Shown here: in pieces, positions 7,308-11,964 of the stretch | Layout: each line of letters starts with the position of its first letter | How positions within the stretch are numbered: the first letter of the stretch is position 1 | Source of the DNA: a virus | Taxonomy: Duplodnaviria; Heunggongvirae; Uroviricota; Caudoviricetes | Length of the DNA stretch: 12,264 bases | Virus record (IMG/VR): IMGVR_UViG_2537561977_000026 | Span: 1-12,264 of that record | Reading direction: 5' to 3' (one strand) | Program-made: the position numbers and the translations under genes | Notes under the pieces: model-generated | Seen by the model: the letters and a program-made list of their open reading frames with translations, nothing else | The model's database searches: none | What the model was told of the DNA's origin: nothing

Positions 7308-8116
7308 TAAACCTAAAAAGAAAATCGTCAAAATTAGAGATTCCGGTTTGACACGGAAAGTCATATCAGCGCTGAGATGACATCGCTTGATGATGCTGGT
7401 GGGCGTGCACAGGTTGTCGGGAGTCGTCTTATCGTCCTGGCAGACCAGCCGAAATATACAGGCGAAGGAACGGGCATCAAGAAAATCACGGGCGGCGACC
7501 CCGTGGAAATTAACCCGAAATATGAAAAGCGTTTTACGGCGGTAATCAGGGCGGTGGTGCTGGCAACCAATAACAATCCGATGATATTCACCGAACGGGC
7601 CGGAGGCGTGGCACGTCGTCGCGTGATTTTCCGTTTCGACAATATCGTCAACGAGGCCGAAAAAGACAGGGAACTACCGGAAAAGATTGCGGCTGAAATC
7701 CCCGTCATTATCCGCCGATTACTGGCGAACTTTGCAGACCCTGAAAAGGCGCGGGCTTTACTACTGGAACAGCGTGACGGTGATGAAGCACTGGCGATAA
7801 AGCAGCAAACGGATCCGGTTATTGAGTTTTGCCAGTTCCTGAATTTTCTGGAGGAAGCACGTGGCCTGATGATGGGTGGCGGTGGCGATTCCGTGAAGTA
7901 CACGACCAGAAACAGCCTTTACCGCGTCTATCTGGCGTTTATGGCATACGCAGGCAGAACCAAACCACTAAACGTAAATGACTTTGGCAAGGCCATGAAG
8001 CCAGCCGCAAAAGTTTACGGACATGAATATATTACGCGAAAAATTAATGGAGTGACGCAGACTAACGCAATAACAACCGACGATTGCGACGCGTTTTTAT
8101 AATTTTTGGCAATTGC

Positions 8117-8333
8117 TGTCTACCTGATTACATAAAAGTTGTTTTAATTCAGTGTATTAATTTAGGTAGACAGCTTTTTTTACTGTCTACAAGCTGTCTA
8201 CCTTGTCTACCTGTTTTTGTAGCCAGTCGGAGGGATGGGTAGACATCAGGTAGACAGAGATTTTTTACTGTCTACCACCATAAAACCCGCGTCATTACTA
8301 GCCTGAGCATCCACCAGGTAGATAAGGTAGACA
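8117..8333. repeat. iteron array, candidate replication origin (P4 ori/crr analogue)
   Basis: Octamer TGTCTACC at 8117-8124, 8195-8202, 8204-8211, 8269-8276. Complement GGTAGACA at 8165-8172, 8238-8245, 8249-8256, 8326-8333. Variants at 8184-8191 and 8317-8324. Two palindromic units GTAGACAG-N9/10-CTGTCTAC (8166-8190, 8250-8275). AT-rich spacers. Directly downstream of the primase gene. Confidence 0.6.
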
Positions 8334-8382: not shown

Positions 8383-8640
8383 ATGCACACATCAGGAAAA
8401 CTTAACAATCAGAAGAAGCAACATAACCGCGCCATTGACCTTACAGAGCACTGGCTGAGGGTGGCGATAAAAATCATCGACCGCAACGCGGGAGAAGGAT
8501 ACGCGAAAGCACATCCTGAACTGATAAGCGCATTCATGACCACGGCGGCAGCAAACTTTGCCACGCTGACAGAGCGGGAGATTGCCGAAGCGGAACAGGT
8601 GACAACCATCAACGTTAAAACCGGAGAGCAGACAGCATGA
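8383..8640 (+). CDS. hypothetical protein (85 aa)
   Basis: SD GAGGGGGG before ATG 8383; its stop overlaps the next start (ATGA at 8637). No family recognised. Confidence 0.5.
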   Translation: MHTSGKLNNQKKQHNRAIDLTEHWLRVAIKIIDRNAGEGYAKAHPELISAFMTTAAANFATLTEREIAEAEQVTTINVKTGEQTA

Positions 8641-9325: not shown

Positions 9326-9348
9326 AGCCGGAGGAATCCGGCTTTTTT
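9326..9348 (+). terminator. rho-independent terminator
   Basis: AGCCGGA-GGAA-TCCGGCT hairpin followed by T6. Confidence 0.6.
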
Positions 9349-9354
9349 ACGCCT

Positions 9355-9396
9355 AAAAAAGCCCGATAAGGCCAGAGGAGTCTTATCGGGCTTTTT
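9355..9396. terminator. rho-independent terminator, probably bidirectional
   Basis: A6, then perfect 10-bp stem GCCCGATAAG (9361-9370) / CTTATCGGGC (9382-9391) with an 11-nt loop, then T5. Confidence 0.6.
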
Positions 9397-9476: not shown

Positions 9477-9504
9477 TTGCACAAAATGCAATCATGATTA
9501 TAAT
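9477..9504 (+). promoter_or_regulatory. near-consensus sigma70 promoter for the head-gene operon
   Basis: -35 TTGCAC (9477-9482), 16-bp spacer, -10 TATAAT (9499-9504), in an AT-rich region with repeated TTGCA/TGCAA motifs. ~55 bp upstream of orf68. Confidence 0.5.
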
Positions 9505-9560
9505 CATAACTGGATGTTCATACAGTTATGATTTTTTAAGTCAAAGAGGAATTTCTGACT

Positions 9561-9767
9561 ATGGCAGAAGAGAAAAAAGGTGGGGTTACAGTCTACATAA
9601 GCCCCGACATTGTGGAGGCACTCAAGGAACGCCACCAGCAGAACGTAAAAGCGAGCATTGCGGCAGGACTTGATCCGCTGGCAATGGTTGAGCCGTCAAC
9701 AGGCTGGCAGGTGCGCGCCTATTTACGTGCGGCGTTGGGCATGAATCAGACTCATGGGGGTGAATAA
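9561..9767 (+). CDS. hypothetical protein (68 aa), first gene of head operon
   Basis: SD AGAGGA before ATG 9561; stop overlaps the capsid gene start (TAATG). Confidence 0.5.
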   Translation: MAEEKKGGVTVYISPDIVEALKERHQQNVKASIAAGLDPLAMVEPSTGWQVRAYLRAALGMNQTHGGE

Positions 9768-10821
9768 TGGCAGGTAAAGCAACGGCTCTTAACACTAACC
9801 AGCTTTTCGCGTACCTGAATCGTGGTGATATTGCTGAATTTAAATTCAGTCCGCTGTTTACCACGCTGTTTTTCCCGAACGTGGCGACATTCAGCACCCA
9901 GAACATCATGCTGGATACCCTGGACATTGAAGAAGTCACCATGTCAGCGTTTTGTTCGCCTATGGTGGGTAGTCAGGTCCAGCGCGATAAAGGGTACGAA
10001 ACCAGCACGATTAAACCTGGCTACATGAAGCCAAAGCACGAAATCGATCCAACAAAAACCATTATGCGCATGGCTGGAGAAGATCCGGCACAGCTTAACG
10101 ACCCTACATACCGCCGTATGCGTCTGATTACTGGCAACATGCGCCGCCAGGTCAACGCCATTAAAGCGCGCGTCGAATGGCTGGCGGTGAATGCGGTCAC
10201 GACCGGAAAAACATCATTGAGGGCGAAGGCATAGAACGCTATGAAATTGACTGGAAGATACCGGAAAGCAATATCATAGTGCAGGTCAAAGGCTGTAAAT
10301 GGTCTGAACAGGACAAAGAAACACACGATCCAATCTATGACATCGAGCTTTATGCGGATCAGGGCAGTTGCCCCGCCAACGTCATGATTATGGGCGCTGA
10401 TGTATGGCGCACGTTACGCAGCTTTAAAAAATTCCGCGAGCTGTACGATCTTTCCCGTGGTTCAGAATCCGCCGCCGAACTGGCGTGTAAAAACCTGGGC
10501 GAAGTGGTGAGCTTTAAAGGCTATCTGGGCGATATTGCCCTTATCGTCTATTCCGGCAAATACGCCGACAGCGACGGCACCGAAAAATATTTCCTTGAGC
10601 CTGATTTGCTTGTCCTGGGCAACACCAACAATAAAGGGCTGGTGGCCTATGGTGCGATTATGGATCAGGACGCAGTAAGAACGGGCGCAACGCAAAACAT
10701 GTTTTACCCGAAAAACTGGATTGAGGACGGCGATCCGGCGATTGAGTACGTGCAGACGCACAGCGCACCGCAGCCGGTTCCGGCAGATATTCGCAAATTT
10801 GTTACCGTCAAAATTGGTTAA
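9767..10821 (+). pseudogene. lambda gpE-type major capsid protein, -1 frameshift in an A5 run
   Basis: ORFs 9767..10234 (frame 2) and 10177..10821 (frame 1) together are collinear with lambda E: FKFSPLF..LFF, IKPGYMKPKHEIDP, DPTYRRMRLITGNMRRQVNAIKARVEWLAVNAVTTGK, then DPIYDIELYA...SRGSESAAELACKNLGEVVSFKGYLGDIALIVYSGKY...LVLGNTNNKGLVAYGAIMDQDA...FYPKNWIEDGDPAIEY. Restoring A6 at 10206-10210 gives one ~352-aa ORF. Confidence 0.85.
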
Positions 10822-10832
10822 CGGGGGATTCT

Positions 10833-11168
10833 ATGGACACTCCATACATTGAGTTATTTGCAGGCAGTCAGCAGGTCGCCACGACGCTGGTACATTTTGC
10901 CGCTGATGCTGGCGTTATTCAGGAATTTACCCCGCTGATGCTGGCGGACAATGGCGAGTTTAAGCCGTGGGATGGTAAGGAATCTGGCAAGGCTGTTTAT
11001 CTGACCTCGTACCCTGTGGACACGTCAGAGCAGAAATCAGCACAGTGTTACAAGACGGGGATATTCAATATTGCTGCCGTTAATTGGCCTGAGAGCGTCG
11101 ACACCGACGCGAAAAAATGCGCCGCCTTTGCGGGTTCTGGCGTATCCGTTCAGCCGCTGGCCCGATAA
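10833..11168 (+). CDS. lambda gpD-like head decoration protein
   Basis: SD GGGGGA. TPLMLADNGEFKPWDG...CYKTGIFNIAAVNWPESVDTDAKKCAAFAGSGVSV matches lambda D (TPLMLDTSSRKLVAWDG...[36 protein letters not shown]). Confidence 0.7.
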   Translation: MDTPYIELFAGSQQVATTLVHFAADAGVIQEFTPLMLADNGEFKPWDGKESGKAVYLTSYPVDTSEQKSAQCYKTGIFNIAAVNWPESVDTDAKKCAAFAGSGVSVQPLAR

Positions 11169-11180
11169 GCAGGGGGAACG

Positions 11181-11552
11181 ATGGCAACGAATGAAAGCAT
11201 CATGACGCTACCGCTGGCGAGTAAATTTAAAGCCGAAGCGCGGGCAATGGCTGACAGAGGGTTATCAACCTACGAGGCCATATATCAACTTAACAAACTG
11301 GAAGAGCAGGACAAGCCGCGCGCTGATGCGATTATGGCGCTTGATGAATCTGGCGACTATCAGCCGCTGTTACGTGCAATGGCAAACGTGCCTTGTATCG
11401 ATGTTGGTACGGCCAAAAGCATTCTTAGCATGACCATAGAGCAGGAACGCCAGAAGGTTGCACCAGAGCTTACCGCAGCCTTTGAAAACTTTATGGACAT
11501 GCACAGCCCGAAAGCCGTATCAGCTGGCATGGCATACGATAGCAGAAACTAG
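11181..11552 (+). CDS. hypothetical protein (123 aa), head-operon associated
   Basis: Strong SD AGGGGGAA; tightly spaced after the D-like gene; followed by a terminator. No family recognised. Confidence 0.55.
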   Translation: MATNESIMTLPLASKFKAEARAMADRGLSTYEAIYQLNKLEEQDKPRADAIMALDESGDYQPLLRAMANVPCIDVGTAKSILSMTIEQERQKVAPELTAAFENFMDMHSPKAVSAGMAYDSRN

Positions 11553-11600
11553 GGCGATGACGGCGACATCGATCGCATACTGAAAACCATCTGAGACAAG

Positions 11601-11622
11601 GCCGGAGAAATCCGGCTTTTTT
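11601..11622 (+). terminator. rho-independent terminator, same module as 9326-9348
   Basis: GCCGGA-GAAA-TCCGGC followed by T6; 24/25 identical to the terminator at 9326-9350. Confidence 0.6.
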
Positions 11623-11704
11623 ACGGGGCCTTTCCGGCATATGGACCCGTTACGGGGCGGGAGCGGCGCAGAATTTCACTATTTATGAAAATTTTTCGGA
11701 AACC

Positions 11705-11802: not shown

Positions 11803-11964
11803 TATGCCGCGTTTCATAAAGTTGTTCGCAAGATGCATGTTTAAAACGCATGAGGGGAGATTTTTTGGCGAGGTGAACAGTGGCTACTCAGACTGAAGTT
11901 GCCAGGCATTTGAGTCTGACCGATCGCCAGCTTCGCAGATTACAGAAATTGTTCCCCCATCACT

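Follow-up and report, generated by a model that had tools for sequence, protein, structure and literature searches.

The closest described relatives of the locus analysed here are the phage-inducible chromosomal islands (PICIs) of Gram-negative bacteria. De Sousa et al. (2023) counted "capsid morphogenesis" among the five core components of PICIs and noted it as typical of enterobacterial ones (PMC10085698), and the SatelliteFinder phylogeny showed an almost perfect separation of the PICI capsid clade from that of the capsid-forming PICIs (cfPICIs) (PMC10085698). Mageeney et al. (2023) reported a major capsid gene in 21 of 29 reference Gram-negative PICIs (PMC10111431), and Fillol-Salom et al. 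(2018) described the capsid gene c1499 and the decoration gene c1500 of EcCICFT073 (PMC6092414). In the supplement of the latter study, c1499 is a 351-aa "capsid" protein, c1500 a 111-aa head decoration protein and c1501 an unlabelled protein of 137 aa, sizes that match those of the EcCICFT073 proteins compared here (PMC6092414). The DNA in question is a 12,264-nucleotide stretch of the IMG/VR record IMGVR_UViG_2537561977_000026 (positions 1~12,264, hereafter the window), in which positions 9477~11622 carry homologues of the lambda head genes E and D next to an integrase/alpA/primase backbone. We assign this region with high confidence to a classical Gram-negative PICI of the EcCICFT073 family, as its late "capsid morphogenesis" module, and a damaged copy of such an island is very probably the best explanation of the locus as a whole. 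The original prediction regarded an E/D pair in this setting as atypical and perhaps undescribed. It is instead a canonical PICI core component, already known and common as the standard capsid-gene module of EcCICFT073-type E. coli satellites. As a finding the pair therefore matters little, being defining for and very common in E. coli PICIs.

The homologue of the major capsid protein E (c1499 type) lies on the plus strand at 9767~10821 and had been read as one gene; in the given sequence it is split into two open reading frames (ORFs) at the A-run 10207~10211, which has five A residues in the window and six in all relatives. The ORF at 9767~10234 matches PF03864 (Phage_cap_E) with an E-value of 9.7e-15 over profile positions 14~131, and the ORF at 10177~10821 matches the same family with an E-value of 1.1e-29 over positions 130~328. 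Repaired at the frameshift, the protein has 351 residues and is 95.2% identical to c1499. Sequence search showed that the c1499 protein of CFT073 matches PDB 3BQW, deposited as "putative capsid protein of prophage", across all 351 residues with an E-value of 6e-241, and c1499 thus appears to have a crystal structure. The head decoration protein D/SHP homologue (c1500 type; 10833~11168, plus strand) matches PF02924 with an E-value of 2.8e-17 and is 99.1% identical to c1500. Among solved structures it comes closest to the head decoration proteins 1TD0 and 1TD3, which we take to be SHP of phage 21. The PHROG assignments agree with those of Pfam for both proteins, so that the predicted identities of E and D are borne out. 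The order E then D, correctly predicted as inverted relative to lambda, reverses the order C/Nu3-D-E of lambdoid prophages, as compared in the CFT073 locus (L003) and an Edwardsiella tarda locus (L004).

The island form of the capsid protein (E') is 45~46% identical to the nearest phage proteins, namely the E proteins of Gifsy-1, PhiR12 and phage 21. No phage E closer than 46% was found in the phage collection, the PICI copies are 92~96% alike, and the ratio of nonsynonymous to synonymous substitution rates (dN/dS) of E is 0.06~0.20 at a dS of 0.23~0.34. Given this distance from phage proteins, the likeness among PICI copies and the strong purifying selection, E' represents an old and maintained satellite lineage. 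The dN/dS of D is 0.10~0.61. Within E, codons 151~210 (10217~10396) have both dN and dS far above the rest of the gene, with dS reaching 0.5~1.7, which suggests a mosaic generated by recombination between divergent alleles. Positive selection on this segment was rejected, as dS is saturated there and dN/dS is still 0.03~0.17.

Downstream of D, positions 11181~11594 of the plus strand correspond to a gene of the c1501 type, which encodes 137 residues in relatives. In the window it is orf123 (11181~11552), a 123-aa ORF that exists as predicted; it is not a complete gene, being cut by a TAG codon at 11550~11552, where relatives have CCG and CFT073 has CAG (Gln) and the ORFs reach 137 residues. 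The truncated allele is common to eight contigs, and the tail removed by the stop, DDGDIDRILKTI, varies little or not at all across the c1501 family. By BLASTP, orf123 is 96.7% identical to c1501. It matches the C-terminus of phrog_53 ("head maturation protease") with an E-value of 2.2e-8, and a tblastn search of 2.3 Gb of phage DNA linked orf123/c1501 to Nu3 of phage 21/PhiR12 with an E-value of 2e-5. Profile-profile comparison of the c1501 family against Nu3 by hhalign gave a probability of 96% and an E-value of 2.8e-9, in agreement with a BLASTP match of orf123 to the C-terminus of a CFT073 prophage gpC. The homologous part comprises the C-terminal 70~80 residues of orf123, aligned to the last repeat and the tail of phage-21-type Nu3, which is the C-terminus of protease C; the Nu3 motif occurs three times in the phage protein and once in the island protein. 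Judged by these alignments, orf123 is a nonsense-truncated copy of c1501, and c1501 a shortened homologue of the phage-21-type Nu3 scaffold, hereafter mini-Nu3. The dN/dS of c1501 is 0.10~0.65. In some E. coli islands, c1501 variants of 93 aa are missing exactly residues 21~64, corresponding to a deletion between two "RAMA" repeats.

The first gene of the cassette, orf68 (9561~9767, plus strand), also exists as predicted. It belongs to phrog_3255, a family of unknown function, and by BLASTP its product is 92.6% identical to that of the EcCICFT073 gene preceding c1499. By gene order this counterpart is c1498, the first and unlabelled gene of the EcCICFT073 cassette. The dN/dS of orf68 is 0.05~0.29. 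Its AlphaFold2 model (pLDDT 77) consists of a β-hairpin and two helices; a Foldseek search of this model against the PDB returned nothing below E = 3, and searches of Pfam, NCBIfam and PDB sequences gave no matches. A ribbon-helix-helix regulator and a gpW analogue were considered for orf68 and dropped, as the model has no fold match in the PDB and the protein has no sequence-family matches.

The module is one transcription unit, separated from the upstream genes by tandem terminators. Terminator copy 1 (9322~9351, plus strand) consists of a hairpin at 9327~9342 and a T6 run, and is followed by a second strong hairpin at 9356~9396 on the same strand; the region 9322~9396 folds as RNA at -38 kcal/mol with a z-score of -7.3. 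Terminator copy 2 (11596~11625, plus strand) has its hairpin at 11601~11616, again followed by T6. The two copies, each 30 nt long and 90% identical to one another, both fold to a hairpin followed by a U-run, so that the cassette is indeed bracketed by two copies of one terminator module. The predicted near-consensus sigma70 promoter fared less well. The promoter-like site on the plus strand (9477~9504) has a -10 element TATAAT (9499~9504) matching the consensus at 6/6 positions, a 16-nt spacer and a -35 element TTGCAC (9477~9482) matching at only 3/6. A consensus promoter scan did not list this site, and found three promoter-like sites against 4.6 expected in shuffled sequence, no support above chance. 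The promoter-like region is almost invariant among relatives, whereas the DNA upstream of it varies. A perfect 14-bp palindrome, ATGATTATAATCAT (9494~9507), overlaps the -10 element, and an inverted repeat (9502~9516 and 9519~9533) overlaps the site as well. The palindrome is followed by an inverted repeat with 11-bp arms, perfect in relatives and with one mismatch here, and by a T-run. Either an operator or a read-through terminator is conceivable at 9494~9533.

Following the cassette, a lambdoid cos region spans 11623~11951 on the plus strand, with a cosQ-like segment (11623~11637), cosN (11649~11669), a cosB-like stretch and the start of Nu1 (11880~11951); it was the only cos-like site found in the window. 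Its nucleotide identity to PhiR12 phages is 77%, extending through cosB and past the Nu1 start, and that to the annotated cos of phage 21 is 72%. After cosB, a PhiR12-type Nu1 (TerS) begins, of which the first ~24 codons are kept before the sequence diverges into island DNA; in contrast to EcCICFT073, islands of this sub-family are without an Rpp gene. Altogether, by sequence similarity E, D, the scaffold homologue and cos come closest to lambdoid phages of the phage-21/PhiR12 type and their head region. In its right half, cosN reads GGGCGGGAGCGG, a variant shared with the island of FDAARGOS_943, compared to GGGCGGCGACCT in lambda, phage 21, PhiR12 and EcCICFT073; as read from the sequence, the variant implies that the cohesive end differs or that the site cannot be cleaved. 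An Rpp/TerS gene after the cassette was considered and rejected: the 74-aa ORF at 11880~12104 is merely the first ~24 codons of PhiR12-type Nu1, and neither it nor orf99 has PDB relatives or similarity to RppA. The last conserved gene of the island, orf99 (11965~12264, plus strand), belongs to phrog_1561, and its product is 70% identical to that of the last EcCICFT073 gene by BLASTP.

Compared to the core set used by SatelliteFinder for Gram-negative PICIs (PMC10085698), the window contains all five components. An integrase lies at one end (Pfam domains within 1~1233, in a damaged gene), and the AlpA/MerR/Stl class of regulators is represented by PF05930 at about 1732~1938. The primase-replicase is present as D5_N/DUF5906/Pox_D5 pieces of a gene split by two insertion sequences (ISs), together with origin iterons at 8111~8333. 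The capsid morphogenesis gene is that matched by PF03864 at 9767~10821, 95% identical to c1499, and the lambdoid cos at 11623~11951 takes the place that TerS/Rpp or a helper cos holds in the set. Thus int, alpA, a D5-type primase, iterons and cos are all found in the window. By contrast, none of the components "forbidden" in PICIs (tail, holin, portal and head-tail connector genes) was detected among the ORFs scanned with Pfam, PHROG and NCBIfam or in the flank on the source contig. Pfam and PHROG scans of the ORFs in the window likewise found no tail, lysis, portal or TerL genes, and portal, protease and terminase are absent both from the window and from the following 9 kb of the source contig. 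The original prediction had stated that no portal, protease/scaffold or terminase is visible; this stands for portal, protease and terminase, and fails for the scaffold, of which orf123 is a Nu3-like homologue.

The cassette is part of the int/alpA/primase island and not of an adjacent prophage. The source contig, ADUP01000047.1 (assembly GCA_000188815.2), identified by an exact match to the orf123 protein, is 100% identical to window positions 1181~12264, and beyond the window it continues with a 41-aa ORF, yejO, narP and the ccm operon, without phage genes. Nor does the cassette have att sites of its own in this contig. The close relative L001 has the same right flank, its island being bounded by tRNA-Pro/yejM and yejO and ending directly after the orf99 homologue. 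In L002 the island sits in a split tqsA and ends directly after the orf99 homologue, and in L003 (EcCICFT073 in CFT073) the right boundary is phoQ, again directly after the orf99 homologue. In these three annotated relatives, islands of ~10~11 kb thus lie between host genes at three different chromosomal sites, in the shared order int, alpA, primase, SSB, with or without PerC, orf68, E, D, the 137-aa gene and the last small gene. In L001 the island is enclosed by two copies of a 26-nt direct repeat, TTTTTAGCTACACGTT(T/A)AGCTATACG (3551~3576 and 16763~16788), with 25 of 26 positions matching; one copy lies between tRNA-Pro and int, the other ~0.9 kb past the last island gene. The downstream extension called for with the original prediction, which met no portal or terminase gene in the source contig, revealed the right-hand copy there as well (11968~11993), ~0.9 kb past the right end of the window. 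This repeat is a candidate att core.

Among 5426 complete E. coli genomes, 2137 match the 4-kb query formed by window positions 8300~12264, and 592 (~11%) carry the four-gene cassette at a coverage of at least 80%, with 92~95% identity. Related loci also occur in other genera. In Edwardsiella tarda (L004, 1810~11606), a related satellite with int, alpA, primase, orf70, E and D interrupts the portal gene of a lambdoid prophage, whose D and E form a set separate from that of the satellite; it is therefore a helper-embedded PICI in another genus. In Pluralibacter gergoviae (L006 and L007), the orf68-E-D cassette is accompanied by a different integrase and a DUF927 primase; E is split (179 and 170 aa) in one assembly and uncalled in the other.

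What the cassette does for the island is less clear than what it is. In a mechanism that we put forward tentatively, a lambdoid helper would induce the island through AlpA, upon which E', D' (the island decoration protein) and the mini-scaffold would be made as a matched set. These proteins would build shells on the portal and protease of the helper, and the helper terminase would fill the satellite shells from the island's own cos site; such shells would add to or alter the capsid supply without being essential. Several observations weigh against this mechanism. Deletion of c1499 or c1500 left the transfer of EcCICFT073 and its interference with lambda unchanged (PMC6092414), EcCICFT073 with c1499 replaced by cat was transferred at 1e5~1e6 per ml (PMC6092414), and EcCICFT073 DNA packaged with lambda was all in phage-sized particles (PMC6092414). 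Among the cloned post-ori genes of EcCICFT073, only c1503 (RppA) inhibited lambda (PMC6739421). Moreover, the identity of E' to phage E proteins is no more than about 45%, which leaves its cooperation with a helper portal and protease unproven, and orf68 has no fold recognisable by Foldseek in the PDB. By analogy with EcCICFT073, a capsid-forming role is thus not supported, since the genes of the model island are dispensable for transfer and interference and that island is packaged in phage-sized capsids. Nevertheless, all marked EcCICFT073 islands were c1501::tetA or c1499::cat (PMC6092414). As c1501 would be the scaffold of the set, we infer that these marked backgrounds leave room for a joint role of the three genes.

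A bolder version of the shell-assembly mechanism, which we regard as quite unlikely, is that E', D' and mini-Nu3 form a self-sufficient shell kit, working on the portal and protease of a phage-21/PhiR12-type helper and yielding satellite-specific, possibly smaller capsids. Such a role could have been missed because the markers lay inside c1501 or replaced c1499, and because capsid size was tested with lambda and not with a cognate helper; if true, it would place these islands as an intermediate between classical PICIs and cfPICIs. We found no functional studies of PICI E/D genes in the literature after 2018. It is possible, if doubtful, that a matched MCP (major capsid protein), decoration protein and scaffold under selection fit shell assembly better than they fit a poison or a relic. 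The latter, in which the E/D/Nu3-like genes are functionless late genes that recombination took over from a helper, for instance while the island was embedded in it, and that persist by hitch-hiking, is unlikely. It would accord with the lack of phenotype of the c1499 and c1500 deletions in the model island, with the proposal of Mageeney et al. that late genes of helpers are captured and lost in cycles (PMC10111431), with a scaffold nonsense mutation common to several strains, and with the split or uncalled E of the Pluralibacter relatives. However, a relic would hardly show the strong purifying selection seen on E and orf68, nor the old, maintained lineage of E', nor would about 11% of complete E. 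coli genomes be expected to conserve E, D and scaffold as a matched set. That the cassette would instead be an interference or defence module, whose E', D' and mini-Nu3 poison or divert the assembly of lambdoid phages beyond the helpers tested, is improbable too. The capsid homologue Ccm is cited as acting in this way in SaPIbov5 (in PMC6092414), and the Pasteurella PICI PmCI172 encodes an MCP homologue and makes small capsids (PMC6092414). By contrast, the cloned EcCICFT073 genes other than c1503 did not lower lambda or phi80 plaques (PMC6739421), deletion of c1499 or c1500 gave no relief (PMC6092414), and a poison has no need of a matched decoration protein and scaffold.

Two further explanations concern the nature of the island itself. 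The original prediction described a P4-like backbone and a possible capsid-forming satellite, and a cfPICI or P4-like satellite with a new capsid strategy would share the int, alpA and primase backbone and an encoded MCP with the present island. Such a satellite is very improbable here. The gene content of a cfPICI is missing: the head genes amount to the MCP, the decoration protein and a Nu3-like fragment, and there is no portal, protease, head-tail adaptor or connector, HNH, TerS or TerL gene, nor any at the right end of the island in the source contig; in addition, the capsid clades of PICIs and cfPICIs are the nearly separate ones noted above (PMC10085698). P4 itself, as had been stated, is without such capsid genes. 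Its combination of int, AlpA and an alpha-type primase does occur here, yet PICIs have these too, so that the combination is non-discriminating, and no match to the P4 hallmark proteins Psu, Delta or Sid was found in the ORFs scanned with Pfam, PHROG and NCBIfam; the backbone is of the PICI type. The notion of a prophage edge, with the cassette belonging to an ordinary lambdoid prophage beside an int/primase island, can practically be discarded. Homology of E, D and Nu3 together with a lambdoid cos and Nu1 start might be taken for such an edge, and satellites of this PICI family can sit in prophages, as in the E. tarda locus. But the order is E-D-Nu3' against Nu3-D-E in the phage, without the Nu1-A-W-B-C/Nu3-D-E arrangement with portal and protease of a lambdoid head region or any terminase. 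The same cassette accompanies int/alpA/primase at three chromosomal sites between host genes, and in E. tarda the E/D of the satellite and the D/E of the prophage are separate sets. The scenario is excluded because the source contig runs into yejO, narP and ccm without portal or terminase, which agrees with the original placement of the cassette within a phage satellite. The reading as a classical PICI with a capsid module thus returns an old question, namely why satellites riding in helper capsids keep capsid, decoration and scaffold genes under purifying selection. Our additions to it are modest: c1501 as a truncated Nu3-type scaffold would complete a set of MCP, decoration protein and scaffold, and the islands with "no phenotype" were already disrupted within that set.

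The apparent decay of this copy probably has two sources. Three sibling assemblies are the same as the window over the shared right half (about 4.3~4.9 kb, with 0~1 substitutions) and have an intact 351-aa E; they differ from the window only in having A6 for A5 in E and T8 for T7 at 8174. Along 9.3 kb of chromosomal flank, comparison with a sibling showed no substitutions and, in the source assembly, four single-base homopolymer deletions, two of which split ccmH, and the left 2 kb of the window has three further homopolymer losses, in int (156), an intergenic T-run (1590) and alpA (1770). The assembly GCA_000188815.2 systematically drops one base in runs of 6~8 identical bases (window 156, 1590, 1770, 8174 and 10207; source contig 12076~16579). 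Because the source assembly repeatedly loses homopolymer bases, the frameshifts in alpA and the first one in int are most likely assembly errors, and that in E is almost certainly one. A real or programmed frameshift in E was rejected, as the relatives all have A6 and an intact ORF and the siblings differ only at homopolymers. By contrast, the two IS insertions in the primase gene, the 8-nt loss in int and the TAG codon in the scaffold gene are probably real lesions. The IS insertions are probably real and shared because the short-read contigs of the siblings break at the IS boundary, and the loss in int is probably real because it removes one copy of a tandem 8-mer, unlike the homopolymer losses. 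With ISs in the primase, the 8-nt int deletion and the nonsense mutation in the scaffold gene, this copy of the island is probably immobile; helper-driven induction, excision and transfer are shown only for its relative EcCICFT073. The case illustrates how homopolymer errors of an old draft assembly can mimic gene decay.

The backbone genes to the left of the cassette follow the same plan. The P4-family tyrosine integrase gene (1~1233, plus strand) is represented by three ORFs (1~189, 348~1115 and 997~1233) with the Pfam domains Arm-DNA-bind_3, Phage_int_M and Phage_integrase. Compared to intact relatives of 413 residues, it has lost 1 nt in the A-run at about 156 and is also 8 nt short at 992, where intact relatives read GCTGGTGT GCTGGTGT and one copy of the tandem GCTGGTGT is gone; this loss shifts the frame ahead of the catalytic C-terminal region. 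The alpA regulator gene (1732~1938, plus strand; PF05930) was delimited by alignment to alpA of L016, and its N-terminus is shifted by the 1-nt loss in the A-run at about 1770. Between alpA and the replication genes lies a YlcI/YnfO-family gene on the minus strand (2318~2623; NCBIfam NF041551, E-value 1.6e-17), and a DUF4222 gene is found on the plus strand between alpA and the primase gene. The D5_N/Pox_D5 primase-replicase gene (3523~8102, plus strand) was assigned by Pfam D5_N and, for 7377~8102, by a PHROG primase match, and is colinear with the intact primase of L001. It is interrupted by an IS4-type element (4260~5551) with a 13-bp target duplication and by an IS110-family element (5850~7367; DEDD_Tnp_IS110/Transposase_20). 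The IS4-type element (DDE_Tnp_1) is fused in frame with the N-terminus of the primase (D5_N), giving a chimeric ORF of 669 aa. Directly 3' of the primase gene, an iteron-type replication origin (8111~8333) contains GGTAGACA and TGTCTACC repeats, grouped into the direct and inverted repeat families D6, D7 and I2~I4, and matches the layout of Gram-negative PICIs (PMC6092414). Further downstream, positions 8383~9319 of the plus strand encode orf85, an SSB (8637~9020) and a PerC-family regulator (9017~9319), assigned by Pfam SSB and PerC and by PHROGs.

Comparison with known systems places the island among classical PICIs. SaPIbov5 likewise encodes an MCP homologue, Ccm, on a cos-packaged island; Ccm is credited with a demonstrated small-capsid phenotype, whereas none is reported so far for the E. 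coli protein. The cfPICIs, such as EcCIEDL933 (Alqurainy et al. 2023), share with the present island the int/alpA/rep backbone and an MCP of their own. However, they encode an HK97-type MCP, protease, portal, connectors, HNH, TerS and TerL and make complete small capsids, whereas the head genes of the island are limited to those for an MCP, a decoration protein and a scaffold fragment. In the head module of phage 21/PhiR12 (gp5/gp6 = C/Nu3, SHP = D, gp7 = E, and cos), E, D, the C-terminal part of Nu3 and cos are homologous to those of the island, despite a protein identity of just 37~46% and the order E-D-Nu3' instead of Nu3-D-E. The island scaffold is a separate gene with one of the three repeats, whereas that of the phages is the C-terminus of the protease, and the island lacks the portal, protease, W, FI/FII and terminase of the phage module. 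The helper-embedded PICIs of Mageeney et al. (2023) belong to the same satellite family and have the same capsid gene, whereas the window island sits at a chromosomal site and not inside a helper.

The closest counterpart is EcCICFT073, the prototype Gram-negative PICI (Fillol-Salom et al. 2018, ISME J; 2019, Mol Cell), with some differences in detail. EcCICFT073 adjoins phoQ, whereas L001, with the same right flank as the window's island, has its island at tRNA-Pro/yejM-yejO. The window island is without the RppA gene (c1503) of EcCICFT073 and keeps a helper-like cosB and the first Nu1 codons instead; its cosN reads GGGCGGGAGCGG compared to GGGCGGCGACCT in EcCICFT073, and CFT073 has two cos sites. 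The window copy is also damaged relative to EcCICFT073, by the ISs in the primase gene, the 8-nt int deletion and the nonsense mutation in c1501. Nevertheless, the two islands share the order int-alpA-...-primase-ori-SSB-PerC-orf68-E-D-c1501-cos-...-last gene, their cassette proteins are 93~99% identical, both carry a lambdoid cos, and both span 10~12 kb when intact.

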